Source of the DNA: a virus
Lineage: Duplodnaviria; Heunggongvirae; Uroviricota; Caudoviricetes
DNA: 46,563 bases
Virus record (IMG/VR): IMGVR_UViG_2861038214_000001
Location: 1-46,563 of that record
Strand: one strand, 5' to 3'
Below are positions 6,527-30,217 of the stretch, piece after piece (within the stretch, counting starts at the first letter, position 1; each line of letters starts with the position of its first letter). A model generated the notes under the pieces. It saw only the letters and a list, made by a program, of their open reading frames with translations, was not told where the DNA came from and ran no database searches. The translations under genes were made by a program, and so were the position numbers.

Positions 6527-6528
6527 AC

Positions 6529-7771: not shown

Positions 7772-7786
7772 AATTACTCCTGATAA

Positions 7787-8626: not shown

Positions 8627-8738
8627 AATTCAATCCATTTACTATGTTATGTTCTGAGGGGAGTGAAAATTCCCCTAATTCGATGAAGATTCTTGCTCAA
8701 TTGTTATCAGCTATGCGCCGACCAGAACACCTTGCCGA

Positions 8739-9386: not shown

Positions 9387-9394
9387 CCCTTAAA

Positions 9395-9480: not shown

Positions 9481-9494
9481 CTAGGGAGACCGCA

Positions 9495-9713
9495 ATGAAC
9501 AAAATTGCCCAGCAGCGAAAAAAAATCGGAGTTTCGCAAGCTGTACTAGCTTCAGCAATTGGTTGGGGGCAATCCCGCATCGCCAACTATGAGCTGAATA
9601 TCCGTACTCCTGGCCTTAACGATTGCCGAATGATCGTAGAAGGCCTCAGGAAGTTAGGGTGCCAATGTTCTTTGGATGATGTTTTCCCTCCATCCAGTAA
9701 CAAAGCCGCCTAA
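9495..9713 (+). CDS. cro: Cro-like HTH regulator (72 aa)
   Basis: ORF track 9456..9713 trimmed to ATG with GGGAGA SD; HTH motif; position. Confidence 0.75.
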   Translation: MNKIAQQRKKIGVSQAVLASAIGWGQSRIANYELNIRTPGLNDCRMIVEGLRKLGCQCSLDDVFPPSSNKAA

Positions 9714-9721
9714 GCAGTACC

Positions 9722-9762
9722 CGCTCTTTAACAGTCATGGCCTTTCACCTCTAACCGGGTGA
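9722..9762 (+). promoter_or_regulatory. nutR (boxA CGCTCTTTAACA; boxB hairpin TCACC-TCTAACC-GGTGA, phage 21-type)
   Basis: seen in sequence downstream of cro. Confidence 0.65.
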
Positions 9763-9830
9763 GCAAACATCAGCGGCAAATCCATTGGGTGTGCCGCTAT
9801 AACTCAATATCAATATAGGAAAATTAACAA

Positions 9831-10127
9831 ATGGCACAAGCAAGCTACAGCAAGCCAACACAGCGAGAAATTGATCGCGCTGAAACTGATTTACTCATCA
9901 ACCTGTCAACGCTTACCCAGCGCGGTCTGGCAAAGATGATTGGCTGTCATGAATCGAAGATAAGCAGAACGGACTGGAGATTTATTGCTTCGGTCTTGTG
10001 TGCTTTCGGAATGGCATCAGACATCAGTCCGATTAGCAGGGCTTTTAAGTATGCGCTTGATGAAATCACAAAGAAAAAATCCCCGGCCGCCACCGAGGAT
10101 TTTAAGCAAATTGATATGCAATTCTGA
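9831..10127 (+). CDS. cII: CII-like transcriptional activator
   Basis: ORF track; C-terminus KKKSPAATEDFKQIDMQF resembles lambda CII KKRPAATERSEQIQMEF. Confidence 0.75.
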   Translation: MAQASYSKPTQREIDRAETDLLINLSTLTQRGLAKMIGCHESKISRTDWRFIASVLCAFGMASDISPISRAFKYALDEITKKKSPAATEDFKQIDMQF

Positions 10128-10159
10128 GTGAATTACTGGATCAATCCACAGGAGTAATT

Positions 10160-10321
10160 ATGACAAAACGTCGTAAGAAATACCAGGAAAAAGAAGAGAT
10201 TCGACACCCTGATTCACCTGAGGGATTAGTGGTAGCCGCAGCAAATAACAGGGCGTTCGCAGAGCGCCTTGTTGGTGTTTACAGACTAGCCAAAGCAGGA
10301 GTGAAACATGGGCGTCGTTAA
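10160..10321 (+). CDS. small basic hypothetical protein (53 aa, MTKRRKKYQEKEEIRHPDSPEG…)
   Basis: own translation; GGAG SD; overlaps start of O-like gene by 14 nt. Confidence 0.4.
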   Translation: MTKRRKKYQEKEEIRHPDSPEGLVVAAANNRAFAERLVGVYRLAKAGVKHGRR

Positions 10322-11138
10322 GTTAGCTGATTACAGGCCTCAACTGGAGGTCGTGGAGCATCGCGTGGCAGAACTCGAAGATGGCTACACTCGGACTGCA
10401 AACACACTGTTAGAAGCCGCCATGCTTTCTGGACTTACTCTACATCAGTTACTGATTGTTATGGCTGTGTGGCGCAAGACATACGGTTACAACAAAAAAA
10501 TAGATTGGATCGGAAACGAACAGTTCGCTGAACTCACTGGCATGGCACCAACCAAATGCTCTACCGCCAAAAACGAGCTTATCAGAATGGGAGTTCTCAT
10601 TCAGGTTGGGCGTCAAGTTGGTATGAATACAAACATTTTCGAGTGGAAAACGAAAGTTAACGGATTCGGTAAAACATTTACCAATTCGGTAAAACAAACA
10701 TTCACCAAATCGGTAAAAAGCAATTTACCGAATCAGTCAAACACAAAAGACAATATACAAAAGACAATAAATACAAATACCCCCTTACCCCCTAACGGGG
10801 ATGGCGATGGGCAGGTTAAACCTGAACGTCGCAAGGCAGAACGAATCGACTACGAATCCTTCCTGAACGCCTACAACACCGAAGTCGGTGACAGACTTCC
10901 ACACGCTGTTGCGGTCAACGAGAAACGAAAACGCCGCCTGAAGAAAATCATTCCGCAACTGAAAACGCCAAACGTGGACGGTTTCAGAGCGTATGTCAGG
11001 GCGTTTGTGCATCAGGCCAAGCCGTTTTACTTCGGAGACAACGACACTGGCTGGACGGCAGATTTTGATTACCTGCTGAGGGAAGATTCGTTAACGGGAG
11101 TACGGGAAGGGAAGTTTGCAGACAGGGGGATTGCATGA
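10308..11138 (+). CDS. O: replication initiator, lambda O-like (Phage_rep_O N-domain)
   Basis: ORF track; N-terminal O-like HTH region; iterons inside gene. Confidence 0.8.
10666..10733. repeat. replication origin iterons (3 direct TCGGTAAAA(C) copies at about 20-24 bp spacing plus one inverted copy) inside O-like gene
   Basis: direct repeats seen in sequence; followed by A-rich stretch; analogous to lambda ori within O. Confidence 0.6.
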
Positions 11139-12511
11139 AACAGGATATCGAAGCGAGCGTTATCGGTGGCCTGCTGATTGGTGGATTAACTCCAACCGCC
11201 AGCGACGTTCTGGCAACGCTGGAGCCGGAAGCGTTTTCAATTCCGCTCTACCGGAAAGCCTTCGAGGTTATCCGCAAGCAGGCGAGAAACAGAAACCTAA
11301 TCGACGCACTGATGGTTGCCGAGGCGTGCGGAGAGGAGCATTTCACGTCAATCCTGATGACCAGTAAGAACTGCCCGAGTGCCGCAAACCTGAAGGGATA
11401 TGCCGGAATGGTCGCGGATAACTATCACCGCCGTCTGGTGCTGGAAATCATGGATGAAATGCGTGAACCAATTCAGAGCGGAACCATCGATACATCGAGT
11501 CAGGCGATGGACGAGCTTGTAAAGCGTCTCTCAGCCATCAGAAAGCCCCGTGACGAGGTTAAACCTGTACGGTTAGGGGAAATCATCACTGACTACACTG
11601 ACACGCTTGACAGGCGCCTGAGGAACGGAGAAGAGTCAGATACCCTGAAGACCGGAATCGAAGAACTTGATGTCATCACCGGAGGGATGAACGCGGAAGA
11701 CCTGGTGATAATCGCTGCCCGTCCTGGCATGGGGAAAACCGAACTGGCGCTGAAGATTGCCGAAGGCGTTGCAAGCCGCGTTATTCCTGGTTCTGACGTC
11801 CGGCGCGGAGTATTGATTTTCTCAATGGAAATGAGCGCATTGCAGATTGCAGAGCGAAGCATTGCCAACGCCGGGAGGATGTCGGTTAGCGCACTGCGAA
11901 ATCCTGCATCGATGGATGACGAAGGCTGGGCGCGTGTTGCTAACGGCATGAGTCAGCTTGCAGATTTGGATGTATGGGTAGTCGATGCCTCGCGGTTATC
12001 GGTCGAAGAAATACGCTCAATCGCAGAACGACACAAACAGGAAAATCCAAACCTGTCACTCATCATGGCGGATTATCTTGGCCTGATTGAGAAGCCGAAA
12101 GCAGACCGCAACGACCTCGCAATTGCTCACATCTCCGGAAGCCTGAAGGCGATGGCGAAAGACCTGAAAACGCCTGTTATCTCCCTAAGTCAGCTTTCGC
12201 GCGATGTTGAGAAGCGACCAAACAAACGCCCGACAAACGCAGATTTGCGTGATTCAGGAAGCATTGAGCAGGACGCAGACTCAATCATCATGCTCTATCG
12301 GGAAGCGGTATATGACGAGAACAGTAGCGCCGCGCCATTTGCTGAAATCATCGTGACGAAAAACCGTTTTGGCTCGCTTGGTACGGTTTACCAGCGGTTC
12401 TGTAACGGACACTTTGTTGCATGTGACCAGGATGAAGCCAGACAGATTTGCACAGCATCAAATGCACCTGCTGCGCGTGGCAGACGATATGCACAAGGGG
12501 CTGACGTATGA
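11135..12511 (+). CDS. DnaB-family replicative helicase
   Basis: ORF track; Walker A ([12 protein letters not shown]) and DnaB-like C-terminal RecA-fold motifs. Confidence 0.9.
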
Positions 12512-12583
12512 CCATCTACATCACTGAGCTGATAGCAGGCCTGCTGGTAATCGCAGGCCTTTTTATTTGGGGGAGGGTAAATC

Positions 12584-12790
12584 GTGGCTGAGTTAATTTT
12601 CTCTGCATTGAGGATTCTCGGTGCTATGTGGATGGTGGCGACGTTCATTGTTGTTGCCAGCAGTTTTGTCCGGTTGGTAGGCGAAGGTAAAGACCTGGTG
12701 GGTGTGCTTTTCGGTAGCATTTTCCTGTGGGTGATTATCGGTGTTATGCCTGTCGCTGTAGCAAAAATGGCGTGGCGTTTTGTGAGTTGA
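12584..12790 (+). CDS. small hydrophobic membrane protein (68 aa, 2 predicted TM segments)
   Basis: ORF track; GTG start with GGGGAGGG SD. Confidence 0.5.
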   Translation: MAELIFSALRILGAMWMVATFIVVASSFVRLVGEGKDLVGVLFGSIFLWVIIGVMPVAVAKMAWRFVS

Positions 12791-12807
12791 ACTGAGGGTA
12801 AGTATCG

Positions 12808-13128
12808 ATGGACGAATCAAGAAAGCAGTTTGAAGAAAGTTGGTTGCGACGTGGAGGCGAATCCTCAGACCTTATCCGTTACCCTGAAAATCACCATGAA
12901 ATTGGCAGTGGTAATATTGGTGGTCAATACGTGATGGACGATGTTCAAGGCCACTGGCAAACGTGGCAGGCATCGCGATCAGCTATTGAAATAACCGCGC
13001 CAAAGTTTATCGACAGCAGAGAAGCATTAGCCAAAGGGTTTACTGTTGATTATTCCTATGGCTTCGGCGATGGAATGGATGCTTATGAGGAAAACATCCG
13101 CGCTGCTGGAGTCAAAGTGAAGGAGTAA
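12808..13128 (+). CDS. hypothetical phage protein (106 aa)
   Basis: ORF track; nin-region context. Confidence 0.6.
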   Translation: MDESRKQFEESWLRRGGESSDLIRYPENHHEIGSGNIGGQYVMDDVQGHWQTWQASRSAIEITAPKFIDSREALAKGFTVDYSYGFGDGMDAYEENIRAAGVKVKE

Positions 13129-13130
13129 CG

Positions 13131-13541
13131 ATGAAGCAGACAATCTTCCTCCGAAGTAAGCAACAACAGCAAGCCGCAATAAATGCCATCCTCTCAACTC
13201 CTCTCGATAAAGACAAGCCAGTCACGATCCGCATTACTGACTACAAGCGAAATCTTGACCAGAACGCAAAATTTCACGCGATGCTGGCGGATATCGCTCG
13301 TCAGGTTCAATGGTGCGGAAAATGGTTAAAACCGGAACAATGGAAGGTTTTGTTGATCAGCGGTCATGCAGTGGCAACAAAGCAGGAAGCTGATGTTTTG
13401 CCCGGGCTTGAAGGCGAATACGTCAACATTCGCGAAAGTAGCGCGCAGATGAGCGTGAAGCGCATGGCAAGCCTGATTGAGTACACGACAGCATGGGCTA
13501 TTGGTCAGGGTGTCAGATTTACCGACAGGAGGTACGAATGA
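13131..13541 (+). CDS. ninB: NinB recombination protein
   Basis: ORF track; similarity to lambda NinB (…LDQN.K…W.GKWL…). Confidence 0.8.
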
Positions 13542-13714
13542 GACGACAGCGACGAAGCATCACCGACATCATCTGCGAAAACTGCAAATACCTTCCAACG
13601 AAACGCTCCAGAAATAAACGCAAGCCAATCCCAAAAGAATCTGACGTAAAAACCTTCAACTACACGGCTCACCTGTGGGATATCCGGTGGCTAAGACATC
13701 GTGCGAGGAAATGA
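13538..13714 (+). CDS. ninE: NinE-like protein (58 aa)
   Basis: ORF track 13493..13714 trimmed to ATG overlapping ninB stop (ATGA); [20 protein letters not shown]… as I recall NinE. Confidence 0.6.
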
Positions 13715-14118
13715 CAATGCTTTTAATTCAACCTGGATTTGGCCTTAGCATCAAAAAAGGGCACATGTTTGGCGAGAAAGAATCTCAACGAAAAATGGTG
13801 TCGATACAGTTGCCATTTATCAGTATTTATTGGCTAAACAGGGAGGCAACAAATTATTGGTATACATGCGCCAGAGCAGCATTTAACGACCCTGACTGGT
13901 TTGTGAAAAACCACCACGCAGTTCGTCAGGCAAAGAGAAAGGCCAATACGACATACATGAAGGCGTATCGAAAAGCATGGAAAGAACACCGCGATCGATA
14001 CCAGCAAGATATGGAAAAGCTTGAATCAGAAAACATGGAATTAAGACGAAAGCTTGGTGAAGCAAAACGAGACATTGATGCTTACAAGCGACTTTTTAAT
14101 GGTGAAAGCCATGCTTAG
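13711..14118 (+). CDS. hypothetical protein (135 aa) inserted between ninE and ninF
   Basis: ORF track 13675..14118 trimmed to ATG overlapping ninE stop; no family recognised; C-terminal coiled coil. Confidence 0.55.
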
Positions 14119-14287
14119 TCCATCCCAATCTCTTCAATACCAGAAAGAAAGCGTCGAGCGGGCTTTAACGTGCGCTAATTGCGGTCAGAGGCTGCATGTG
14201 CTGGAAGTTCACGTGTGTGAGCACTGCTGCGCAGAACTGATGAGCGATCCGAATAGCTCAATGCACGAGGAAGAAGATTATGGCTAA
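14111..14287 (+). CDS. ninF: NinF-like Cys-rich protein (58 aa)
   Basis: ORF track 14054..14287 trimmed; [26 protein letters not shown]… matches NinF as I recall. Confidence 0.65.
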
Positions 14288-14885
14288 ACCAGCGCGAAGG
14301 AAATGCAAAATATGCAAGGAATGGTTTCACCCGGCATTCTCAAATCAGTGGTGGTGCTGCCCGGAACACGGAACTCAATTAGCACTCAAACTACGAAGCA
14401 AACAGCGCAAAAAAGCGGAAAAAGCAGCAGAGAAGAAACGACGACGAGAGGAGCAGAAACAGAAAGATAAACTTAAGATTCGAAAACTCGCCTTAAAGCC
14501 CCGCAGTTACTGGATTAAACAAGCACAACAAGCCGTAAACGCCTTCATCAGAGAAAGAGACCGCGACTTACCATGTATCTCGTGCGGAACGCTCACGTCT
14601 GCTCAGTGGGATGCCGGGCATTACCGGACAACTGCTGCGGCACCTCAACTCCGATTTGATGAACGCAATATTCACAAGCAATGCGTGGTGTGCAACCAGC
14701 ACAAAAGCGGAAATCTCGTTCCGTATCGCGTCGAACTGATTAGCCGCATCGGGCAGGAAGCAGTAGACGAAATCGAATCAAACCATAACCGCCATCGCTG
14801 GACTGTCGAAGAGTGCAGGACCATCAAGGCGGAGTATCAACAGAAACTTAAAAAACTGCGAAACAGCAGAAGTGAGGCTGCATGA
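14280..14885 (+). CDS. ninG: NinG/Rap recombination-associated protein
   Basis: ORF track; Cys-rich N-terminus and conserved NinG core. Confidence 0.8.
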
Positions 14886-15553
14886 ATATCTACGAAAGAA
14901 TTGATGGCAGCAAATACCGAAATATTTGGGTAGTTGGCGATCTGCACGGATGCTACACGAACCTGATGAACAAACTGGATACGATTGGATTCGACAACAA
15001 AAAAGACCTGCTTATCTCGGTGGGAGATTTGGTTGATCGTGGTGCAGAGAACGTTGAATGCCTGGAATTAATCACATTCCCCTGGTTCAGAGCTGTACGT
15101 GGAAACCATGAGCAAATGATGATTGATGGCTTATCAGAGCGTGGAAACGTTAATCACTGGCTGCTTAATGGCGGTGGCTGGTTCTTCAATCTCGATTACG
15201 ACAAAGAGATTCTGGCTAAAGCTCTTGCCCATAAAGCAGAAGAACTTCCGTTAATCATCGAACTGGTGAGCAAAGGTAAAAAATATGTCATTTGCCACGC
15301 CGATTATCCTTGTGATGAATACGAGTTTGGAAATCCAGTTGATCATCAGCAGGTAATCTGGAACCGCGAACGAATCGGCAACTCACAAGACGGGATCGTG
15401 AAAGAAATCAAAGGCGCGGACACGTTCATCTTTGGTCATACGCCAGCAGTGAAACCACTCAAATTTGCCAACCAGATGTATATCGATACCGGCGCAGTGT
15501 TCTGCGGAAACCTCACATTGATTCAGGTACAGGGAGAAGGCGCGTGGGCATAA
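14882..15553 (+). CDS. Ser/Thr protein phosphatase (lambda PP / NinI-like metallophosphatase)
   Basis: ORF track; metallophosphatase motifs GDLHG, GDLVDRG, GNHE. Confidence 0.85.
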
Positions 15554-16062
15554 GAGAACTAAACCTCACCAAAGAACAGCATGAGTGGCTGAATGGCTGG
15601 CTTGAACTGTGGGGCGCATGGGTTTATTCAGGTCGTCTGGAAAAGCGCATGAGCAGCGTAATAGCGAAGTTCATGGAGAGCGTAGAGCCGGGAAGAGTTA
15701 TGACAAGGCCAATGTGTAATGATGATGATGGAATGTTGATTTCTCAGGTCGTCGATTCCGTCATGTACATTGACAAGAAAGCCTTTGGCATCCTCCTAAG
15801 CTACTACGCTCATGGTTCATCTAAGCGAGCAATTGCATCCTACTATCACGCGACTGCAAAGCCACGCAAGATGTGTGGACGTGGTGGCGAGGGATGGAGA
15901 AAACCTTCACTGGCAACCTGTAGAAACGAAATTGACGACATCCTGAAAGCGTCATTATTTGTTTTATACCAGCCAATGCAAAATGCTTTTAAAATGCGTA
16001 AACGTGTTGAGAAAGTTAAGCATGTTGCTGTTAAAAGACTTGACATGCAATTATCCATTTAG
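15544..16062 (+). CDS. Q: late-gene antiterminator Q-family protein
   Basis: ORF track; position upstream of lysis cassette; Q-like N-terminal region. Confidence 0.7.
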
Positions 16063-16079
16063 CCATAATTAGAAGGTAA

Positions 16080-16125
16080 GCTGCCGTTAGTGACTCTTAA
16101 GTTGCAACGGTGGCTTTTTTGTTTG
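16080..16125 (+). terminator. hairpin + T-run, candidate intrinsic terminator just after Q
   Basis: 9-bp stem (2 G-U pairs), 17-nt loop, TTTTTTGTTTG tail. Confidence 0.35.
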
Positions 16126-16415
16126 CACAACAGGTAAGAGCATTGAACCCGCAGACCTCGCGGAATTGGTGAAAGGTGCCGCGCAGTGCTCTTATCGTTG
16201 TGGTGAAGCTCAATGGCGAGCTAGCAGATAGGCGGCAGTGAAAATACTAGTCATGTAGCTGACCGCCGCGCGTACTGCAATCGGCAGCGCACCGATGGAA
16301 GCCGGTTCGATTCCGGCCGCCACAACCCAAACTGAGCCGTAGCCACTGGCTATCCTGAATTCATCAGTGACAGTTACGCTGCGGACTTCTACACATGACC
16401 TTCGTGAAAGCGGGT

Positions 16416-16450
16416 GGCAGGAGGTCGCGCTAACAACATCCTGCCGTTTT
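16416..16450 (+). terminator. candidate tR'-like terminator (GGCAGGA/TCCTGCC stem, then GTTTTG)
   Basis: seen in sequence about 120 nt upstream of S. Confidence 0.35.
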
Positions 16451-16570
16451 GCCCGTGCATATCGATCACGAACAAATCTGATTACTAAACACAGTAGCCT
16501 GGATTTGTTCTATCAGTAATCGACCTTATTCCTAATTAAATAGAGCAAATCCCCTTATTGGGGCTAAGAC

Positions 16571-16894
16571 ATGAAGATGCCAGAAAAACATGACCTGTTA
16601 GCCGCCATTCTCGCGGCAAAGGAACAAGGCATCGGGGCAATCCTTGCGTTTGCAATGGCGTACCTTCGCGGCAGATATAATGGCGGTGCGTTTACAAAAA
16701 CAGTAATCGACGCAACGATGTGCGCCATTATCGCCTGGTTCATTCGTGACCTTCTCGACTTCGCCGGACTAAGTAGCAATCTCGCTTATATAACGAGCGT
16801 GTTCATCGGCTACATCGGTACTGACTCGATTGGTTCGCTTATCAAACGCTTCGCTGCTAAAAAAGCCGGAATAGAAGATGGTGGAAATCAATAA
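16571..16894 (+). CDS. S: class I holin, lambda S-type (107 aa, dual-start MKMPEK…)
   Basis: ORF track; sequence matches lambda S as I recall. Confidence 0.9.
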
Positions 16895-17354
16895 TCAACG
16901 TAAGGCGTTCCTCGATATGCTGGCGTGGTCAGAGGGAACTGATAACGGACGTCAGAAAACCAGAAATCATGGTTATGACGTCATTGTTGGCGGAGAGCTA
17001 TTCACTGATTACTCCGATCACCCTCGCAAACTCGTCACGCTAAACCCCAAACTCAAATCAACAGCCGCCGGACGCTACCAGCTTCTTTCCCGTTGGTGGG
17101 ATGCCTATCGTAAGCAGCTTGGCCTGAAAGACTTCTCTCCGAAAAGCCAGGACGCTGTGGCACTGCAACAGATTAAAGAGCGTGGCGCTTTACCGATGAT
17201 TGACCACGGTGATATTCGTCAGGCAATCGACCGTTGCAGCAATATCTGGGCTTCACTGCCGGGGGCTGGTTATGGTCAGTTCGAGCATAAGGCTGACAGC
17301 CTGATTGCAAAATTCAAAGAAGCTGGCGGAACGGTCAGAGAGATTGAGGTATGA
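16878..17354 (+). CDS. R: endolysin, lambda R-type lytic transglycosylase
   Basis: ORF track; sequence matches lambda R. Confidence 0.9.
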
Positions 17355-17809
17355 GCAGAGTAACCGCGATTATCTCCGCTCTGGTTATCTGCATCATCGT
17401 TTGCCTGTCATGGGCTGTTAATCATTACCGTGATAACGCCATCGCCTACAAAGAGCAGCGCGATAACAAGGCCAGTGAACTGGAGCAGGCGACCGCCACC
17501 ATTACTGACATGCAGCAGCGCCAGCGTGATGCAGCAGAACTTGATGCCAGATATACAAAGGAGCTTGCTGATGCTAACGCGACTATCGAAAGTCTCCGTG
17601 CTGATGTTTCTGCTGGTCGTAAGCGCCTGCAAGTCGCCGCCACCTGTGCAAAGTCAACGACCGGAGCCGGCGGCATGGGCGATGGAGAAAGCCCAGGACT
17701 TACAGCAGATGCTGAACTCAATTATTACCGTCTCCGAAGTGGAATCGACAAGATAACCGCACAGGTCAACTACCTGCAGGAATACATCACCACGCAGTGC
17801 CTGAAATAA
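17351..17809 (+). CDS. Rz: i-spanin Rz
   Basis: ORF track; N-terminal TM segment, coiled-coil periplasmic domain. Confidence 0.85.
17571..17756 (+). CDS. Rz1: o-spanin Rz1 (lipoprotein, embedded in +1 frame of Rz)
   Basis: ORF track 17430..17756 trimmed to signal peptide [20 protein letters not shown] with lipobox Cys, Pro-rich mature part. Confidence 0.65.
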
Positions 17810-18617: not shown

Positions 18618-19358
18618 ATGGCAAAACCGGACTGGGGAGCACTGCAACACCAGTTCCTCGCCGAGCATGCCAAAACAGGAATATCCCCGAAAGACTGGTG
18701 CGCAGCGCAGGGACTGAATTACTCATCTGCGAAACGCTATATCAAAGTAACGACTTACGGTGCGAATTCGCAAAAAAAAAGTGCGAACAAATCTGCGAAT
18801 TCGCAGAAGGAGAAAGGCGGGGCTAATAAAAACGGGAAGGTGAAAAAAAACCAGCCCGACACAGGCGCCCACTCAAAATCTCCAGAAACGAAACCGATAC
18901 GCGGATCGCGCACTGCTCCGCCGACGAACGCCTTCCAGCCTGGCAACCAGAATGCATTAAAGCATGGTGGCTATGGTCGCCGGATGCTGCTCTCTGACGC
19001 CATCACCGAAGATGCCCAGATGCTCACGCTCGACGATGAGCTTTTCTGGCTGCGAGCGGCGAGCCTGACAGCGGCAGAGAATATCGGGCGCTGGCAGACA
19101 GAGCTGGAGACAGCCGCCAGCGAGCAGGCCAAAGATCTGCACGACCTCATCTCTCAGGCGCAGAAAGCCATGCATCGCAACACTGCGCGCATTGAGTCGC
19201 TGGAGTACACCAAGGCGGCGATTATCAAGCAGCGCGTTGATGCCGCTTACCGCGAAGCCGCGACCGAAAAGGTTGAGCTCGAAATTGATGTACTGAAAGA
19301 CGGCGACAAGGATAACGCGATCGTCGTGCATAACTCGCTGCCAATACCGGGAAGATAA
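18618..19358 (+). CDS. terminase small subunit
   Basis: ORF track; N-terminal HTH, conserved FQPGNQNALKHGGY motif, position upstream of large subunit. Confidence 0.75.
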   Translation: MAKPDWGALQHQFLAEHAKTGISPKDWCAAQGLNYSSAKRYIKVTTYGANSQKKSANKSANSQKEKGGANKNGKVKKNQPDTGAHSKSPETKPIRGSRTAPPTNAFQPGNQNALKHGGYGRRMLLSDAITEDAQMLTLDDELFWLRAASLTAAENIGRWQTELETAASEQAKDLHDLISQAQKAMHRNTARIESLEYTKAAIIKQRVDAAYREAATEKVELEIDVLKDGDKDNAIVVHNSLPIPGR

Positions 19359-19361: not shown

Positions 19362-20693
19362 ATGGCCGACATTTACCTACCCACGCTACACAACGGGCAG
19401 TTAACGGTCTGGTCTGATTCCTGGGATCACCAGTTGAATGCGGTTCGCTGTGGTCGACGCTGGGGGAAAACCTTCATGCTGTCGAGCGCTGCGGTGACCT
19501 ACGCAACGTCGCAGTTCCGGCGCCCGGGCATGGATATCGAGCTGGGCGGTCGGGTCGGCATCTTCACTGCCGAGTATCGCCAGTACCAGGAGATCTACGA
19601 CAAGCTGGAAGAAATCCTGTTGCCGCTGAAAAAGAGCTTCAGCCGGCAGGAAAAGCGACTGCTGCTGAAGAACGGCGGGAAGATTGACTTCTGGGTCACC
19701 AACGACAACAAACTGGCCGGTCGTGGTCGTGAATATGAAATTATCCTGATCGATGAGGCGGCGTTTACCAAGTCGCCTGAAATGCTGAAGGAAATCTGGC
19801 CGAAGTCGATTAAGCCGACGCTACTGACGACAAAAGGCCGGGCCTACGTATTCTCAACGCCTGACGGTGTGGATGAAGAAAACTTCTTCTATGCCATCTG
19901 CCATAACAAAGACCTCGGCTTCCATGAGCATCACGCGCCGACGTCATCAAACCCCTTCGTTCCTCCCGAGGAGCTGGAGAAAGAGCGACAGAACAACGAT
20001 CCTCGCGTTTTCCGGCAGGAGTTCCTGGCCGAGTTCGTCGACTGGTCCGCTGCGTCGCTGTTCGACGTCCGCAAATGGTTCGAGGGTGAAAACCAGGATC
20101 AGCCTGTCGATTACCCTGAGATGTGTCAGGCCGTCTTCGCTGTCATGGATACCGCAGTTAAGGGCGGTACAGAGCACGACGGCACGGCGGTGATTTACTA
20201 CGCCGTCGACACCCGCCCCGGCATTCAGCGCCTGACTATTCTCGACTGGGATGTGGTGCAGATCGACGGCGCGCTGCTGGAAGAGTGGATTCCGTCTGTT
20301 TTCACCCGGCTGAATGAGCTATCCGGCCAGTGCGTCGCTGTAAATGGCAGCCTCGGCGTTTTCATCGAAGACGCCAGCATGGGAAGCATCCTCCTGCAGA
20401 AAGGTGAAAGCCTGGGATGGCCGGTCAACAAAATTGAATCCGCCCTGACCAGCAAAGGGAAGGACGAGCGCGCCATTATGGCCTCTGGGTATCACTACCG
20501 CGGGCTGGCGAAAATATCCCGATACGCCTACGAGAAGACGGCAGTCTTCAAGGGCGAAACAGCAAACCATCTGCATAAGCAGGTATCACGATTCCACCTT
20601 GCCGATAAGAACGCGCACAAGCGCGCCGACGATTTGCTGGATGATTACACCTACGGGCTGATCATCGCGTTCGGTAGCGGCGACGCACTCTAG
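19362..20693 (+). CDS. terminase large subunit
   Basis: ORF track; ATPase P-loop-like (GRRWGKT) and nuclease domain-sized C-terminus. Confidence 0.85.
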   Translation: MADIYLPTLHNGQLTVWSDSWDHQLNAVRCGRRWGKTFMLSSAAVTYATSQFRRPGMDIELGGRVGIFTAEYRQYQEIYDKLEEILLPLKKSFSRQEKRLLLKNGGKIDFWVTNDNKLAGRGREYEIILIDEAAFTKSPEMLKEIWPKSIKPTLLTTKGRAYVFSTPDGVDEENFFYAICHNKDLGFHEHHAPTSSNPFVPPEELEKERQNNDPRVFRQEFLAEFVDWSAASLFDVRKWFEGENQDQPVDYPEMCQAVFAVMDTAVKGGTEHDGTAVIYYAVDTRPGIQRLTILDWDVVQIDGALLEEWIPSVFTRLNELSGQCVAVNGSLGVFIEDASMGSILLQKGESLGWPVNKIESALTSKGKDERAIMASGYHYRGLAKISRYAYEKTAVFKGETANHLHKQVSRFHLADKNAHKRADDLLDDYTYGLIIAFGSGDAL

Positions 20694-20704: not shown

Positions 20705-22120
20705 ATGAACGAAGATGATATCGCAATCGGCAGTTGCTCGCCGGAGCTGATCACGCTCCTGGACAGCGATGACATTCAGCCGGGTATGTCGGCTGGCTAT
20801 CAGACCTGCAAAACGATTTACCTCTTCCACCCGTTGGGCGGGAAAATGGTAGATCGCCCGATCAAGATGGCGATGAACGAGTCGCGCACGGTTCACATTT
20901 CGCAGGCGTATGGCATTGAGCAGCGTCTCCGCGATGCATTTGAGCGGGAGTGGAAAGCACTGGGCGCCGATAAGCACATCGCTAATGCGGCGCGCATCTC
21001 TCGCATTTACGGTGTTTCGGCGATCGCAATGCTGGTTGATAACCAGGAGCCGTCCTCTGCGGTGGACTACCGCACGCTGTATAAGCACAACGTGACATTC
21101 AACATTCTCGACCCGCTGAACACTGCCGGAAGCATCGTCCTGAACCAGGATCCGAACGCGCAGGACTTTCAGAAGGTCGACGGGATCAGAGTGGCGGGCA
21201 AGCCGTATCACAAATCCCGCTGTGTTGTGCAACAGAACGAGGACCCGATTTATCTGGCCTATAACTCTGCTGCCTTTGGCTTTACCGGTCGCAGCGTTTA
21301 CCAGCGCGCTCTGTTCCCGCTGAAATCCTTCATCCAGACCATGCGCACCGATGACATGGTTTCCGTGAAGGGTGGCTTGCTGGTAACGAAGATTCAGGGA
21401 CCGAGCTCAGTCGTCAACAACATGATGCAAAAGCTCAGCGGCATCAAACGAATGATGCTGAAGCGAGGGAAGACAGGCGAAGTCCTGCAGATCGGCGCAA
21501 ATGACAGCATCGAATCCATCGACCTGAGCAACCTGGAAAAGCCGCTCGACTCCTCCCGGAATCACATTCTGGAGAATATCGCTGCGGCAGCTGACATGCC
21601 GGCTATCATTCTGAACTCGGAAACATTCGCCCAGGGCTTCGGCGAGGGGACGGAAGACGCTCGATCTGTTGCAGTCTACATCGACAACATCCGCGAGTGG
21701 CTTGAGCCGCTGTATGACTATTTCATCCGTATTTGCCAGTATCGCGCCTGGAGCATTGAGTTTTTCAATTCTCTGCGTGCTGACTTCCCGGAGCTTAAAA
21801 ACACGTACAGCCTGTATTTCTCCTCATGGATTAACAACTTCGAATATCGCTGGCCGTCATCCCTGAAAGAGCCGGAAAGCGAAAAAGTGAAGGTCGACGA
21901 AATCCGCTTTAAGGCCATCGTCAGCATGCTGGAAGTCCTTCTCCCGCAGGTCAACACGGATGATGAGAACCGCGCTCTTCTTATCGAGTGGGCGCAGACC
22001 AACGCGAACGCTAACGAAAGCCTGTTCCCGCAGCGGCTCGATCTCGATATCGACTCTCTAAAGGCTAATCGGCCTGAACAGCCACGGGATGAAGAGCCCG
22101 GCGGCGAGATGATGCTATGA
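20705..22120 (+). CDS. portal protein (putative)
   Basis: ORF track; size and position after terminase. Confidence 0.7.
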   Translation: MNEDDIAIGSCSPELITLLDSDDIQPGMSAGYQTCKTIYLFHPLGGKMVDRPIKMAMNESRTVHISQAYGIEQRLRDAFEREWKALGADKHIANAARISRIYGVSAIAMLVDNQEPSSAVDYRTLYKHNVTFNILDPLNTAGSIVLNQDPNAQDFQKVDGIRVAGKPYHKSRCVVQQNEDPIYLAYNSAAFGFTGRSVYQRALFPLKSFIQTMRTDDMVSVKGGLLVTKIQGPSSVVNNMMQKLSGIKRMMLKRGKTGEVLQIGANDSIESIDLSNLEKPLDSSRNHILENIAAAADMPAIILNSETFAQGFGEGTEDARSVAVYIDNIREWLEPLYDYFIRICQYRAWSIEFFNSLRADFPELKNTYSLYFSSWINNFEYRWPSSLKEPESEKVKVDEIRFKAIVSMLEVLLPQVNTDDENRALLIEWAQTNANANESLFPQRLDLDIDSLKANRPEQPRDEEPGGEMML

Positions 22121-22938
22121 AGACTTTCACGCGCACCGTACGCGAGGCGGTGAAGTTCTTTCTGCGCAATGGCTACACCTCGCGGCAGGAGCTGGAGCAA
22201 TGGCAGGCCATTATCCGGCAGGCAGCCGAAAGCGAAACCGATGACGACTACATGAGCATGGTGTCGGATCGGTTGCGTAAGACCTATGACCTGCAGGTGA
22301 GCAAGGCTGGAGCGCTGGAGCGCCACAAGGGGCTTTCACGCTTCACGCTGAACTACATGGAGCCGAAGTTACGCAGCGAGCTGGATCGCCGCATCCTGGC
22401 CAGCGCTGACCTGATAAAGCTGAATCGCAAGAAAGCCATCGACACTACTCTGTCGCGGTTTAGCGGATGGGCCAGCAGCATTCCCTCAGCAGACAGCATT
22501 GCGCTGACCGGCATTCAGGGAACGATGCGGGAGACGGCGGCGCACATTCAGAAGGCCGCCGAGAAGGTGGACTATGAAGCGCGCCGCGTGATGATTGACC
22601 AGAGCCATAAGCTGATCGCCAATATCGACAACATCATCGCGACGGGCAACAACGCGATTGCTGCCGAGTGGCATAGCCACTGGCGCCAGCCAGGGTACGA
22701 CTACCGGGAAGATCACAAGGAGAGGGACAAGCTGATCTATCTCATCCGCGGGAACTGGGCGCAGAAAAATGGCTATGTCAAAGCTGGCCCTGCCGGCTAT
22801 CTCGACGAAATTACGCAGCCTGGCGAAGAGGTTTTCTGTCGGTGCTACGTCACCTATCTGTACAACCTCCGCAGCATTCCCGAGGACATGCTGACCCAGA
22901 AGGGCCGCAAGTTCCTGGAGTCCATGAAAGCAGCATAG
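22117..22938 (+). CDS. head morphogenesis protein (Mu F / SPP1 gp7-like)
   Basis: ORF track; position after portal, overlapping start (ATGA). Confidence 0.65.
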   Translation: MKTFTRTVREAVKFFLRNGYTSRQELEQWQAIIRQAAESETDDDYMSMVSDRLRKTYDLQVSKAGALERHKGLSRFTLNYMEPKLRSELDRRILASADLIKLNRKKAIDTTLSRFSGWASSIPSADSIALTGIQGTMRETAAHIQKAAEKVDYEARRVMIDQSHKLIANIDNIIATGNNAIAAEWHSHWRQPGYDYREDHKERDKLIYLIRGNWAQKNGYVKAGPAGYLDEITQPGEEVFCRCYVTYLYNLRSIPEDMLTQKGRKFLESMKAA

Positions 22939-22950
22939 GAGCATTAAAAC

Positions 22951-24564
22951 GTGGCTATTTTTGGCAGCGGGATAATGTTCCGTCAGGGGAAGTTCGTCTT
23001 CCTGATCCAGCGCTCGGATGATGGCACATGGTGCCAGCCGGGCGGGACGATAGAGCCGGGAGAGTTAGCCATAGACGCCGCACGGCGCGAGGTGCTGGAG
23101 GAAACAGGCTATCAGTACGATGGCCCGCTGACGCCGCACAGCGTACATGGTGACTACCTGACCTACCGCGCCGACGTGCCGGAGCAATTCGAAGCGAAGA
23201 TAAACGACGAATCGCTGGCCGCCGGATGGTTCCATATTGACGATCTGCCAAAGCCGCTTCATCAGCCATTCGCTGAAATGCTGGCGCAGCAGGCGCTCAA
23301 CGAAACCGACGTGGCCGCGCTCATCGCTGACGGAACGCTCAGCAGCCCGCAATATTTTTACAACATGTGGATGTTCGCCATCCGGGTGACCGGAACAGGG
23401 GTTGCCTGGCGATCTGCAGATCAGGAGATGACGTTCCGTAACCCGGACGACTATCTCACCCCTGAATTTCTCCAGCGGGTAGCTGGCGTACCACTTATCT
23501 GGCTTCACCCCGAAAAAAGAACACTTGATAGCGACGAGTTCTCAAAGCGCGTTATTGGCACCCTGACAAATGCCTGGGTTGCCGATAAGGGCGAAGTGTG
23601 GGCCGTTGCGCGTGTGTACGACGCCGAAGCTGCTGAAATTATGGCAACAAGGCAATTAAGCACCTCGCCAACTGTGAAGTTCTCAGAGGTTGCTCAATCA
23701 ATCATTGTCGACGGTCAGCCTCTACTGGTGGAGCCATCCCCCGAGCTGCTCGACCACGTTGCAATTTGTGAACAGGGCGTGTGGGACAAGCTCCTTGCCC
23801 CTACCGGTGTTAAATCTGATTCCATTCCTGAAGAGGCTGAAAAGATGGACGAGGAAAAAATCGTAGCGCTGATTAATAAGGCGATCGATGCGCGTTTGGC
23901 TAAGGCCGACGAAGAGAAGGAAGCGAAAGCCAAGGCTGACGCCGAAGAGGCCGCCAAGAAAGAAAAGGCTGACGCAGAAGACAAAGAAGCGGAAGAGGCG
24001 AAAGCTAAAGCCGACGCGGAAGAGAAAGCCGCGAAGGAAAAAGCTGATGCTGAAGCCAAAGAAAAGGCGGATGCCGAAGAGGCTGAGAAAATGGCAAAAG
24101 AAAAAGCCGACTCTCAAATCCTCCAGGAAATTGCTGAGCTTCGCTCCCGCATTCCTACCGAACTGAGCGACGAAGAGCGCAACGAAGTTGCAGAAGCGCA
24201 GGTGAAAGCCGATAGCGTCTTCTCCAGCTTTGGCAAACGCGCCCCGATCCCGCTGTCCGGTGAAAAACCGATGGCGTATCGCCGCCGTCTGATGATTCAA
24301 CTGCAGGAGCATTCTCCGGACTACAAAGCCGTCGATCTCTCTGCCATCGCTGATTCTCAACTGCTGAGCACTGCCGAAAAGCATATCTACGCTGATGCGC
24401 AGAAGGCGGCCAGCCTGTCAGTTGGTCCCGGTATGCTGCGCGAGATTAAGCGCGCCGATGCAACCGGTCGCCAGATCAGCACCTTTGAAGGCGATCCCGC
24501 CGTCACCTGGGCGCCGTTCCAGTCTGGCAAGCGTCAGGTCACCAGTTTTAACAACCAGGCTTAA
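22951..24564 (+). CDS. NUDIX hydrolase domain fused to head protease/scaffold-like protein (537 aa)
   Basis: ORF track; complete Nudix box G-x5-E-x7-REV-x-EE-x-GY ([24 protein letters not shown]) at residues about 30-53; central domain of unknown fold; KAKADAEE-type coiled-coil repeats; sits where protease/scaffold normally lies. Confidence 0.7.
23880..24125 (+). repeat. in-frame imperfect tandem repeats encoding (E/K)-A-K-A-D-A-E-E heptad-like units
   Basis: repeated GCnGAnGCnGAAGAG-type units seen in DNA and protein. Confidence 0.7.
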
Positions 24565-24579: not shown

Positions 24580-25440
24580 ATGGCTAATTTATCTCTTAAC
24601 CCGATGGCGACCACGAATGCCGCTGGTTCCTTCGGTGTGCAGTCTGATGGCTTCATTCAGGGCGTTGCTCTGGATGATCCGGCAAATCGCTTTAACCTTG
24701 CGTCCGGCACTGTCGCCGCCACCGAAACCAAACCGCTGTGGGGTGGCCTGCCGGTTGCCGAGTTGCTGCCCGGCGTGAACTCCAGTCCTCGCGGGTCGAC
24801 TATTCGTCGCGCTGTGTCACTGGCTGAACTCGAAGGCTTCACCGTCTTCAACCAGGCCCACAACGGCCTTACCACTCCGCAATCACCGGTTCCGCTGTAT
24901 GCGTCCGGCATGAGCGTTTCATTCTACCGCCTTGGATCCAACATGCGCGTTCCGCTGAAAGCTTCAGCGCAGGTGGTAGCGCTCGGAACCGCTGGCGCAT
25001 CGGTGAAAACGCCGCTAGCGTGGGACTTCGTCAATAACCAGGTGACCACCGCAGCCGCGGCGGCTTTTGCCGGTGCTGACATTGACACGACCGCTGTTAC
25101 CTACTCGAACGGCGTGGCCACCGCCACCACTGCCTCTGCACATGGTCTGACTGCAGGCCAGTACGTGAAGATCAGCGGCGTAGCTCCGGCTGCCTATAAC
25201 GGCACCGTCGTTGTGCTGACCGTACCGAGTACGACAACCTTCACCTATGCGCCTGCCAGCGCGCCGGGAGGCTCCGCGACCACGCAGGGCGCTATCGGCG
25301 CTGTGGCTCAGGCAGACATCACCCTGCCGGTGAAAGTCATCTCCATCGAGAGTGGGAACTCTAAAACTGTCAGCTATGACAGCGCTACGGGCTTCCTTAC
25401 CTGGAACAACACCGACAGCTGCGCGCTGGTCTTACTTTAA
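24580..25440 (+). CDS. head-associated structural protein with Ig-like module (decoration-like)
   Basis: ORF track; Ala/Thr/Gly-rich; shares an about 60-aa module with the 28823 and 36296 proteins. Confidence 0.55.
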   Translation: MANLSLNPMATTNAAGSFGVQSDGFIQGVALDDPANRFNLASGTVAATETKPLWGGLPVAELLPGVNSSPRGSTIRRAVSLAELEGFTVFNQAHNGLTTPQSPVPLYASGMSVSFYRLGSNMRVPLKASAQVVALGTAGASVKTPLAWDFVNNQVTTAAAAAFAGADIDTTAVTYSNGVATATTASAHGLTAGQYVKISGVAPAAYNGTVVVLTVPSTTTFTYAPASAPGGSATTQGAIGAVAQADITLPVKVISIESGNSKTVSYDSATGFLTWNNTDSCALVLL

Positions 25441-25453: not shown

Positions 25454-26485
25454 ATGGCTGCAATTACCCCCAGCTACACCATCGTCAACCCGTCGTATAT
25501 TGCGCCGGAGTTGATCATTGGTTACCAGCAGGCGTCCGGTGCGTTCGAAACCATCGCCAGCGGTAACCCGCAGGTCCGCCTTGGCGTAGGCGACCAGTAC
25601 GTTTATATGCGCCGCCTGGATATTCGTACCCAGGTAACCTCCAGCCAGTCCGGCAACGCCAACCAGCTGCCGAGCGTGGCGCTCGAGGCGCGCATGATCT
25701 CCACTCCAACCTACCTGTTCCGCTGCCGTGGTATCTACGATCACCACGACACCGCGGCGGCCGGTAACTGGAACGTGGCACTGCCAGAAGCTCAGCGTCT
25801 CGGCATGCGTCAGGGCATCTTCCAGCAGTTGCGTTCTGCGCTGCTGTACGGCATGAACCCGGCAGGCGGCGAAGGTCTGCTGAACACCGCAGGCGCGACC
25901 ACCGAAACCCTGCCGCCGGACAGCAACAGCAACACCACTGTGCTGACCTACGACCATGGACAGATGGCTGTCTATCTGCTGGGCCATGTACAGGCCGCGC
26001 TGACCCGCACCATGCAACTGGGTCGCCAGCAGCGTGTTGTTATCCTCGGGCCGCAGCGAGTGCTGGGCGCGATGGAGATTCAGCAGATCGTTCAGCTGAC
26101 ATCTTATCAGCGTCCTGGCGGCGGTACTGATACCGTCGGCGGCACCGTGAAAGAGGTTCTCCGTGGCGCGAATGTTCAGGTTGACTGGGTGTACGACGAC
26201 ACGCTGATCGGCGCCGGTGCCGGCGGTACTGACGCGGTGGTTATCACCATCCCGGAAGTTGAAGTGCCGATGGTTAACTCCACCGTGAACACCAACGAAT
26301 TCGCCAAACTGAGCCCGTCTCTGGCGGCTAATGCCCTGATGTTCACCGACATGGCGGCACCGATGGAAATCCCGACGCCAATCCCCGGGGGCGCTATCGA
26401 CGTGCTGTCAGAAATGCGCTCTACGGCTGGCTGGGCAGTCCGTCCGGAAGCTATCACCATCCTGTCGATGAAATACAGCGACTAA
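25454..26485 (+). CDS. major capsid protein (putative)
   Basis: ORF track; size, position, strong terminator immediately downstream. Confidence 0.7.
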   Translation: MAAITPSYTIVNPSYIAPELIIGYQQASGAFETIASGNPQVRLGVGDQYVYMRRLDIRTQVTSSQSGNANQLPSVALEARMISTPTYLFRCRGIYDHHDTAAAGNWNVALPEAQRLGMRQGIFQQLRSALLYGMNPAGGEGLLNTAGATTETLPPDSNSNTTVLTYDHGQMAVYLLGHVQAALTRTMQLGRQQRVVILGPQRVLGAMEIQQIVQLTSYQRPGGGTDTVGGTVKEVLRGANVQVDWVYDDTLIGAGAGGTDAVVITIPEVEVPMVNSTVNTNEFAKLSPSLAANALMFTDMAAPMEIPTPIPGGAIDVLSEMRSTAGWAVRPEAITILSMKYSD

Positions 26486-28822: not shown

Positions 28823-30217
28823 ATGGCAATTGTTAATATTAACGTGTCGGTGACGAATCCGCCGAAGCCCTCGCAGTTGTTAAAGTCCGGGGCGATGATT
28901 TCTATGGGCGGCACGACGCTGAATGCCGGTGAATATCAGCTGCTGACCAGTGAAACCGACCTGGCCGACATCCTTGCACCGGCGAAAACCATCTCGACGC
29001 TCGCCTGGGCTACTGGCGTGGTAACCGTCACGCTGGCTGCCGCTCACGGATGGACTAACGGTTCACAGGTCCCGGTGATCATCTCCGGCGCGACTCCGGC
29101 GGGGTACAATGGCGCCTATACCGCTACGGTGACAGGTGCCAACACCTTCACCTATCCGCTGACGGCCAACCCCGGCAGCGCAACGGCAATGGGTACGGTA
29201 AAAACGGTAGCACAGACCGAAATTTCCCAGATGAATACCTCGTTCTGGGCCCAGGGGAAAACGCGGGCAGTTTATGTGCTGGAACTGGGCGATGTGTCCA
29301 TGGAGGCAGCTGTCGCAGCGCTGACAACCTTCATTGCTGAAGACGTCTCCCTGGGTAACACCTACCAGAAGTTTTTCTCCTATCTGGTGCCGCGCGAATG
29401 GGATTCGGTCGATGAATTTAAAACCCTGACCAGCCTCTATACTTCGCCGGGAAGTCTGGTTTACTTCTTTGTCACCACAACGATCGCGACCTATGAAGCG
29501 TGGACAGCGACGAAAAACAAAACTGTCTTTGCTGGCGTCGAGGCTCCGGATATTCCGGCTAGCGAGTTTTCCATGGCCGGCCCGTTCCAGTCATCCCTGG
29601 CAAACGACCCGGGGTCGAGCAACATGGTGCCGCCGATGTCGTACCGCTTTATGTACGGCCTGACTGAGTATCCGCTGGAAGGCAACAGCGCACTGCTGAA
29701 ATCGCTTCAGGACAGCAACATCAACTACATCGGTACCGGCGCCGAAGGTGGTCTCAGTAACAAAGTGCTGTTCACCGGCCGCATGCTCGACGGTAACCCG
29801 TTCAACTACTGGTATTCGGTGGCGTGGACGGCGATCAACCTTGAGCTCGACCTGGCGAATGAAATCATCAACGGCTCCAACACGACCGTTAACCCGCTGT
29901 ACTACGAGCAGAAGGGCATTGACCGCCTACAGCGTCGCGCTCTGAAAACCTTGCGTAATGGCATCAGCTACGGGCTGATCCTCGGTCGCGTCATTGACAC
30001 GCAACTGACGCAGGAAGATTTCAACACCGAGTATGACAAAGGCACTTACGCCGGCAACGCCGTGATCAACGCCGTTCCGTTCAGTAACTACAACAGCCTG
30101 AACCCCTCCGATTATCAGGAAGGAAAATACAACGGGCTGAGCGCAGTCATGACGCCGCGCCGCGGCTTCGAATCCATCACGTTTAACGTGAACGTAACGA
30201 ACTTTGTAGGGGCGTAA
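28823..30217 (+). CDS. major tail structural protein, sheath-like (putative), carrying Ig-like module
   Basis: ORF track; size and position before a 145-aa tube-like protein; assignment by synteny only. Confidence 0.5.
   Translation: MAIVNINVSVTNPPKPSQLLKSGAMISMGGTTLNAGEYQLLTSETDLADILAPAKTISTLAWATGVVTVTLAAAHGWTNGSQVPVIISGATPAGYNGAYTATVTGANTFTYPLTANPGSATAMGTVKTVAQTEISQMNTSFWAQGKTRAVYVLELGDVSMEAAVAALTTFIAEDVSLGNTYQKFFSYLVPREWDSVDEFKTLTSLYTSPGSLVYFFVTTTIATYEAWTATKNKTVFAGVEAPDIPASEFSMAGPFQSSLANDPGSSNMVPPMSYRFMYGLTEYPLEGNSALLKSLQDSNINYIGTGAEGGLSNKVLFTGRMLDGNPFNYWYSVAWTAINLELDLANEIINGSNTTVNPLYYEQKGIDRLQRRALKTLRNGISYGLILGRVIDTQLTQEDFNTEYDKGTYAGNAVINAVPFSNYNSLNPSDYQEGKYNGLSAVMTPRRGFESITFNVNVTNFVGA

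Follow-up and report, generated by a model that had tools for sequence, protein, structure and literature searches.

Why a phage should build a Nudix hydrolase into the front end of a protein that shapes its head is the question raised by one gene in a 46,563-nucleotide stretch of caudoviricete DNA (IMG/VR record IMGVR_UViG_2861038214_000001), the whole of which we refer to as the window. The gene is a 537-amino-acid (aa) open reading frame (ORF) at positions 22951..24564 that joins a Nudix domain, a prohead-protease-like domain, and a scaffold region; it matches phrog_6216 end to end (E=6.6e-246) and shares 99.4% identity with gp4 of Klebsiella phage vB_Kpn_Chronis. This gene and the neighboring head genes described below all lie on the plus strand. 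Both the fusion of a Nudix domain to a head protein and the hypothesis that the enzyme is packaged are already in print as a computational prediction (Iyer et al. 2022, PMC9503650, section 3.5.2), and the fusion is real, conserved, and common. What we propose, with our confidence divided evenly between its being right and wrong, is a Nudix domain that enters the procapsid as cargo of the protease-scaffold, reaches the next host, and acts there early on nucleoside diphosphate-X (NDP-X) compounds.

The Nudix hydrolase domain occupies residues 1-113 (22951..23289). A first-pass annotation, made from the letters of the window, had seen a complete Nudix box within the first ~110 residues, and that observation stands: the box, G32-Y54 (23044..23112), is canonical and conserved in homologs, fits GX5EX7REUXEEXGU with its metal-binding glutamates, and lies inside a Pfam NUDIX (PF00293) match of 60.1 bits over residues 9-112, against a cutoff of 21.1. 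In an AlphaFold2 model of the protein built on 71 diverse homologs (mean predicted local distance difference test score, or pLDDT, of 86.4), residues 1-112 score 93-98. Foldseek searches with the domain model retrieve many Nudix crystal structures at E~1e-7, and NudG and MutT-type enzymes head the profile matches in the PDB at E~1e-16. Loss of the box residues in homologous prophages, which the first-pass annotation had named as grounds for giving up the idea, is the opposite of what we see. G32, E38, R46, E47, E50, and E51 are 99-100% conserved in ~138 Nudix-bearing homologs that are 37-70% identical to the query, and the catalytic residues show no variation among 121 close copies and are intact in five cultured-phage homologs, down to 27% identity. 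Judging by this conservation, the domain is under purifying selection, and it is probably an active enzyme, a canonical predicted pyrophosphohydrolase.

The same data bear on whether the domain is instead a decaying, nonfunctional remnant of an old fusion. Such a reading could draw on the greater variability of the Nudix domain relative to the protease domain in the 121 close copies (26% vs 11% variable positions), and on degraded forms in relatives, several of which, such as P0194 and P0248, lack a full Nudix domain but keep a C-terminal remnant of it or a half-deleted copy. The invariance of the catalytic residues and the very confident model of the domain speak against decay, which we consider very improbable.

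The claimed in-frame fusion between the Nudix domain and the head protease/scaffold protein is likewise upheld. Both Nudix and DUF2213 score above their Pfam cutoffs, the frame is continuous, and the fusion is kept in phages down to 27-42% identity. The gene is 98.8% identical to that of RothC/D. Full-length homologs share 83% aa identity with it in five Yersinia phages, 74% in Pantoea phage PdC23, and 42% in a Shewanella phage, with gp26 of BcepB1A at 27%. A word-indexed protein search returned 2,214 relatives, the best 120 of which are all at least 96% identical copies in Klebsiella, Raoultella, or E. coli prophages, mostly named 'NUDIX hydrolase'. An exhaustive search of 50%-identity representatives gave 566 clusters at E<=1e-30, and among the best 150 of these the Nudix box is recognized in 119 by a strict pattern and in 133 by a relaxed one. 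The gene is also 100% identical to a copy in E. coli NZ_LT838196.1 and present in 48/5,426 complete E. coli genomes.

A frameshift from sequencing or assembly that had joined two separate genes, the other sequence-based ground on which the first-pass annotation would have yielded, is excluded by the continuous frame together with the conservation of the fusion in distant phages and in most of the 150 best representatives. Chronis, RothC/D, the five Yersinia phages, PdC23, the Shewanella phage, and BcepB1A, phages sequenced independently of one another, have the same single ORF, as do the 48 complete genomes of E. coli and hundreds of clusters from metagenomes, and we attach practically no probability to this explanation. 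On conservation evidence, both the frameshift and the dead-domain explanations are rejected. The suggestion that the fusion is unusual is not supported by the search: the family spans 566 clusters, with the Nudix domain in most of the 150 best, and the fusion is carried by common Klebsiella and E. coli prophages and occurs in the cultured phages Chronis, RothC/D, PdC23, and BcepB1A.

What had been described as a central domain following the Nudix domain is present and can be made specific. Residues 114-290 (23290..23820) form a DUF2213/COG3566 head-maturation-protease-like domain, as seen in Pfam, PHROG, and fold matches. Pfam DUF2213 (PF09979, now Pa193_gp24) matches residues 159-276 at 25.3 bits against a cutoff of 22, and 57/71 family members match it in a Pfam scan at E<=0.1. 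Among PHROG 'head maturation protease' profiles, phrog_530 matches at E=6e-10 and phrog_2229 at E=4e-8. The modeled alpha/beta domain, ~118-290, has a pLDDT of 83-98 in the full model and of 94.8 when modeled alone. In BFVD, a collection of predicted viral structures, it has 121 fold matches at E<=1e-3, mostly named prohead serine protease, Proheadase_HK97, capsid maturation protease, or DUF2213, with those proteases at E values of 1e-9 to 1e-5. Across 150 cluster representatives, H186 (23506-23508) is conserved in 100%, S237 (23659-23661) in 99%, and T238 and S239 in 100%, while E261, D268, and H269 are 98-100% conserved. His186 and Ser237, 51 residues apart, are a candidate catalytic pair. 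There is good but not conclusive support for a prohead-protease-like domain with an HK97/assemblin-type fold. At the Nudix/protease junction, L116-N117-E118 resembles a T4-type LxE cleavage site; we do not claim it as one, because Nudix-less homologs carry the motif at their extreme N terminus.

Beyond the protease-like domain, the (E/K)AKADAEE coiled-coil repeat region expected from the first reading is borne out. Residues 299-405 (23845..24165) form an A/E/K/D-rich, helical, coiled-coil-like region. These four residues make up 78% of positions 296-405, the peptides KAKADAEE and KEKADAE occur two and three times, respectively, and a 75-nt unit is tandemly repeated in the DNA at 23910-24063 (1.9 copies); AlphaFold2 predicts long helices at 301-338 and 361-400, with low pLDDT. 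The TolA profile TIGR02794 scores 41.7 bits on this charged region, below its cutoff of 59.45, and is the source of the 'TolA protein' label attached to some relatives. The protein ends in a compact, conserved domain (residues 406-537, 24166..24561; pLDDT 87-98) in which many positions, e.g., Q417, E438, Y443, R446, and G514, are at least 93% conserved. Presumably this domain is the part of the scaffold that binds the capsid.

At the start of the helical region there is an in-frame internal ATG (23845, Met299) with a ribosome-binding site, a Shine-Dalgarno-like GAGG at 23833..23836, 8 nt upstream of the Met299 codon. Position 299 is Met in 119/151 homologs and Val, Leu, or Ile in 23 more (142/151), although it lies inside a variable, gappy region; the Val, Leu, and Ile would correspond to internal GTG, TTG, or ATT start codons. 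Although the encoded amino acids differ, the phage genes of Yersinia, Pantoea, and Shewanella keep GAGG or AGGAG at the same distance before this position; in Rac-SA53 the corresponding letters are AGGTG. Comparison of the sequences thus suggests a second product, a probable nested in-frame scaffold of 239 aa running from Met299 to Ala537 (23845..24564).

From these parts a mechanism can be proposed. One gene would give two products, the Nudix-protease-scaffold and the nested 239-aa scaffold from Met299, as lambda C/Nu3 and BcepB1A gp26/gp25 do. Their common C-terminal part would co-assemble both in the procapsid, so that a limited number of Nudix-protease copies would be loaded. The protease would then digest the scaffold, and probably also itself, with the Nudix domain staying in the DNA-filled head, entering the next host with the DNA, and hydrolyzing an NDP-X substrate as soon as infection begins. 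The likeliest substrates would be molecules derived from nicotinamide adenine dinucleotide (NAD) or ADP-ribose, dinucleoside polyphosphates, or nucleotide-capped or triphosphorylated RNA ends. A packaged enzyme acting on nucleotide or NAD-derived signals, as the first-pass annotation had imagined, is plausible.

Relatives of the gene show what else the N terminus of this protein family can hold. In longer relatives an ADP-ribosyltransferase (ART) toxin domain, a PBECR1 nuclease, or DUF5710 stands ahead of the same Nudix-protease core, and one 1,567-aa ORF has, in addition, a fused upstream segment homologous to portal proteins. Fusions of ART and Nudix make up at least 13 separate clusters. 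One of them, an 836-aa ART+Nudix+DUF2213 protein, lies at 3892-6402 of a 44-kb metagenomic contig (L012) in the identical head-module slot, in the order large terminase, portal, a 276-aa gene, the fusion, a 294-aa gene, and a 339-aa capsid gene. Outside its own family, the closest Nudix domains are at the C terminus of the portal proteins of Bcep781, Bcep1, Bcep43, and BcepNY3 (36-41% identity), in the BcepB1A protease, and in Arthrobacter phage portal-MuF fusions; a stand-alone related copy sits inside a Ralstonia phage structural module. Effector-type domains are found on capsid-interior proteins: one Nudix clade is joined to portal, MuF, and protease proteins alike, and the slot in front of the protease also takes effector-type domains of other kinds. 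Because relatives place ART and PBECR effector domains where the window has its Nudix domain, the packaging idea is strengthened.

Several smaller features of these relatives were recorded. P0309 combines PF04957 with Nudix. A ParB-like domain in P0260 and P0255 fell below threshold (16.5 vs 23.6 bits) and was not counted. The homologs in a Shewanella phage (L007, 3857-5704), P0170, and P0133 begin with a short 'SEKQ[HR]RAM.AAA.G.S.LGIP..VG.EF' module, present once or twice before the Nudix domain; this module matches the small PHROGs of unknown function phrog_16759 and phrog_2423. P0187, P0200, P0231, and P0239, which have N-terminal extensions or insertions, show an 'F-x-E-x-HPR-x3-G-K/R-F' motif and a Gly/Ser-rich stretch before the extra cargo domains; in P0200 the motif lies in an insertion of ~220 aa inside the Nudix domain. 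This motif could be a linker or a processing site.

On the delivery proposal, the N terminus of the protease-scaffold family would be a modular cargo slot for host-directed effector domains. The variety of slot occupants (Nudix alone, ART+Nudix, PBECR+Nudix, and others) invites a broader version, in which the slot would be a general one. Any domain fused there would ride in on the scaffold, be released by the adjacent protease, and be injected with the DNA; the Nudix domain of the window would disarm a NAD/ADP-ribose- or nucleotide-based host response before phage expression, and head-fused Nudix domains would make up a separate functional clade, apart from T4 NudE. We hold this broader version more tentatively than the simple delivery proposal and suspect that it is wrong in some part.

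Relatives that have lost the domain speak to a different possibility, namely, that Nudix serves head assembly, either as a nucleotide-responsive regulator or pro-domain that times the protease or by acting on procapsid nucleotides during packaging. In the model the Nudix domain lies directly beside the protease domain with almost no linker, an arrangement that might suit such a role, and NrtR-type regulators use Nudix folds as ligand sensors (PMC9503650). However, Rac-SA53 and Actinobacillus phage vB_Apl-pPE4 build heads with a protease-scaffold that has no Nudix domain, and Nudix-less forms are polyphyletic on a neighbor-joining tree, where no fewer than 15 changes are needed and the root state is 'present'. 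Since these two phages do without the domain and the losses are polyphyletic, the Nudix domain is dispensable for assembly and has been lost repeatedly. In addition, fully conserved metal-binding catalytic residues point to turnover rather than sensing, and in relatives unrelated effector domains take over the slot or are added to it. We regard an assembly role as improbable.

A stronger competitor would have the Nudix domain act late in the producing cell, in the cytoplasm or in forming procapsids, on ADP-ribose- or NAD-derived or other nucleotide signals that late proteins set off, or on the nucleotide pool, which it would clean. Fusion would then mean co-expression only, and the domain would be degraded or expelled without ever reaching the next host. 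The gene does lie in a late head operon, its conserved catalytic residues fit any enzymatic role, and prohead proteases typically digest internal proteins. We also found no virion evidence for the Nudix domain in the literature. Yet co-expression needs no covalent fusion, as a stand-alone enzyme would serve equally in the cytoplasm, and the same Nudix clade is fused to three capsid-interior proteins (portal C terminus, MuF, and protease). The slot also takes toxin-type domains, ART and PBECR, for which injection is the classical prediction (PMC5512222). Action in the producing cell is, in our estimation, unlikely, though it deserves to be taken seriously beside the delivery proposal.

A number of results weigh against delivery of an active enzyme by a protease-scaffold and have to be set beside the evidence in its favor. 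On the side of the enzyme, NCBIfam equivalogs for the Nudix domain all score 17-29 bits against cutoffs of 95-475 bits; its fold matches are spread over diadenosine tetraphosphate (Ap4A) hydrolases, NUDX1, NudC, MutT1, MTH1, YmfB, Dcp2, and RppH; and T4 NudE aligns with it only around the box (hhalign, 58 columns, probability 97%, 25% identity). On the side of the protease, the best fold match in the PDB, the herpesvirus assemblin of Kaposi's sarcoma-associated herpesvirus (KSHV protease), is weak (E=0.045), hhalign alignments of the middle domain to the single sequences of HK97 gp4 (probability 0.3%) and T4 gp21 (1.1%) are not significant, and no curated peptidase Pfam family is matched by any of the 71 members at E<=0.1. 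A profile relation to the curated peptidase families S78 (HK97 gp4) and S77 (T4 gp21) was not found, and the domain is a putative protease. The internal start is a reading of the sequence. A protease at this position could also destroy or expel the Nudix domain along with the scaffold, and we found no virion proteomics or functional test of head-fused Nudix domains in the literature. It is with these points in mind that we leave the delivery proposal evenly balanced.

The spread of matches also determines how far the substrate can be narrowed. Because there is no equivalog placement and the fold matches single out no subfamily, we rejected naming a substrate. The domain could not be matched to the characterized Nudix subfamilies MutT, NudG, RppH, NudC, NudE/NudF ADP-ribose pyrophosphatase, or Ap4A hydrolase, and the Nudt16-like family is touched weakly by 9/71 members (Pfam scan, E<=0.1). 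A proline 15-16 residues after the box, which Dunn and colleagues in 1999 reportedly gave as the marker of ADP-ribose pyrophosphatases, is missing from the window protein, which has Y69 and L70 there. Head-fused Nudix domains share the signature 'LNDEH..W..LP.PLH', and T4 NudE is without it. Iyer et al. 2022 place these domains in a 'T4 NudE-like' clade (PMC9503650), a label for which sequence comparison offers weak support.

The full-length protein begins at a GTG (22951), with a Shine-Dalgarno AGGAG at 22938..22942, 8 nt upstream. Residues ahead of the alternative ATG (Met9) are kept in homologs (A6 in 91%, G7 in 100%), so GTG is the right start. Upstream of the gene lie a small terminase (18618..19358; phrog_370, E=2e-84), a large terminase (19362..20693; Pfam Terminase_6N, phrog_2), a portal protein (20705..22120; Pfam Phage_portal_3, 73 bits; phrog_146, E=3e-69), and a MuF-like head morphogenesis protein (22117..22938; phrog_324 'head morphogenesis', E=4e-29). 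Downstream are a 286-aa protein of unknown function in the decoration-protein slot (24580..25440; phrog_6268, unknown function) and the major capsid protein (25454..26485; phrog_6671, E=5e-183; phrog_264 'major head protein', E=1e-6; a weak Pfam Major_capside match). The gene had been placed between the head-morphogenesis and major capsid genes, and that order is right, except that the 286-aa gene stands before the capsid gene. The window order of small terminase, large terminase, portal, MuF-like gene, Nudix-protease-scaffold gene, 286-aa gene, and major capsid gene describes a head-module order also seen in Chronis, Rac-SA53, BcepB1A, and the 44-kb metagenomic contig.

The 286-aa protein (residues 175-248) and a 464-aa structural protein at 28823-30217 (residues 62-135) have a common domain of ~75 aa (47% identity, E=2e-11), which also matches PHROG 'virion structural protein' and 'tail fiber' families. 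The window as a whole is mosaic, a prophage of an E. coli chromosome in which a lambdoid early/lysis region (1-17800), ~95% identical to HK446, CUS-3, and HF4s, is joined to a Chronis/Felixviridae-like myovirus structural module (18600-45500; ~94%). An integrase at 44159-45355 (minus strand) adjoins a tRNA-Arg(CCT) at 45481-45555, which marks the attachment junction. In the lambdoid early region ARAGORN reports an 83-nt tRNA-Ala(CGC) at 9106-9188 (minus strand) that may be a false positive. In Rac-SA53 (1-6299) the Nudix-less gene is named 'TolA protein', yet its note reads 'nudix', and a heat-labile enterotoxin IIa, an ADP-ribosyltransferase, lies directly upstream of the terminase genes; Iyer et al. 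2022 cite this ART as head-module-associated (PMC9503650).

The gene has also been in use, under another name, as a taxonomic marker. Published diagnostic polymerase chain reaction primers for the proposed family Felixviridae match the window exactly at 22975-22995 and 24542-24562, so the Felixviridae marker is the Nudix-protease-scaffold gene. The primer target in the KlebPhaCol preprint is gp7 of RothC/D, a 'putative virion structural protein', and Nudix is never mentioned there. Names in other records range from 'NUDIX hydrolase' (PGAP, Chronis, PdC23) and 'glycosyl transferase' (the five Yersinia phages) to 'TolA protein' (Rac-SA53, vB_Apl-pPE4), 'hypothetical protein' (RothC/D), and the 'unknown function' of phrog_6216. 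The proper annotation would be head maturation protease/scaffold, with mention of the Nudix domain at the N terminus.

If the packaging proposal is true, common temperate phages of gut Enterobacteriaceae, belonging to the proposed Felixviridae and including the cultured Chronis, RothC/D, and PdC23, deliver a ready-made nucleotide-hydrolyzing enzyme as their DNA enters the cell. That would constitute a layer of counterdefense earlier than any expressed antidefense gene. Should the broader slot reading be true as well, no phage Nudix hydrolase would have been shown to be virion delivered before the one in the window. The system is tractable, with E. coli and Klebsiella hosts, natural Nudix-less relatives as controls, and sister phages that have ART in the slot.

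Among the closest known systems, that of BcepB1A has its parts in the same order. Its gp26 ('head maturation protease, COG3566') has an N-terminal Nudix box, a DUF2213-type domain with the conserved His and Ser-Thr, and a charged C-terminal region, gp25 ('scaffold protein') is annotated as nested in frame within gp26, and the gene occupies the slot after the portal and head-morphogenesis genes. In contrast to the window protein, to which it is 27% identical, gp26 has an extra N-terminal segment of ~45 aa and an annotated internal start at residue 353, and BcepB1A is a virulent Burkholderia phage. Protease and scaffold also share one reading frame in lambda C/Nu3 and in P2 gpO, with the scaffold made separately as well or cleaved off. 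The lambda C protease is of the ClpP/S49 type, P2 gpO is from a different family, and neither has an extra enzymatic cargo domain.

The proteins described by Iyer et al. 2022 are of the same architecture class, as late-expressed, head-associated Nudix domains thought to be packaged, injected, and active on NAD/ADP-ribose-type substrates. An enrichment in contractile-tailed phages is reported there, and the window has a Chronis-like myovirus structural module. That account consists of one sentence and a figure with a 'T4 NudE-like' label, whereas here the likeness to T4 NudE is confined to the box. New beyond it are the limits of the domains, a candidate catalytic pair, the probable nested start, the Nudix clade signature, the losses, the syntenic co-fusion with ART (and also PBECR), and the link to the Felixviridae marker.

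For the fate of such a protein in the virion, Pseudomonas phage Pa193 offers a parallel. Its gp24, a putative scaffold of 478 aa, was detected in mature virions by liquid chromatography-mass spectrometry, and a helix-turn-helix (residues 286-326) was seen by cryo-electron microscopy on the inner capsid surface at the five-fold vertices (PMC11456595). It is the namesake of PF09979, the Pfam family of the window middle domain, and its gene lies beside decoration and capsid genes; because it is present in mature virions, members of the DUF2213 family can persist in the mature head. Taken with the partners of the closest Nudix relatives, the other slot occupants, and the dispensability of the domain, this favors the reading of the Nudix domain as procapsid cargo that probably reaches the next host. 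By its description, gp24 differs in that no Nudix is reported and no protease discussed (PMC11456595). The likeness to the window protein is at the level of the Pfam profile, not BLAST, and no Pseudomonas phage is among the BLAST matches. The portals of Bcep781, Bcep43, Bcep1, and BcepNY3 and the Arthrobacter portal-MuF proteins likewise put a related Nudix domain, with the shared signature, on a protein inside the capsid, but at the portal C terminus or within a polyprotein rather than at the N terminus of a protease.

More generally, T4 Alt and internal proteins and the MuF- or portal-fused 'polyvalent' effectors are enzymes loaded in the head and delivered with the DNA (PMC5512222). Iyer et al. 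2017 describe assemblin-like peptidases at the C termini of polyvalent proteins (PMC5512222), a layout matched by the ART-Nudix-protease relatives found here. A preprint on the T7 portal and the stringent response proved unrelated to Nudix and was set aside. T4 differs in using a short cleavable capsid-targeting sequence, with no fusion to a protease, and in comparison with the polyvalent proteins the window protein, with its single effector, is a minimal version.

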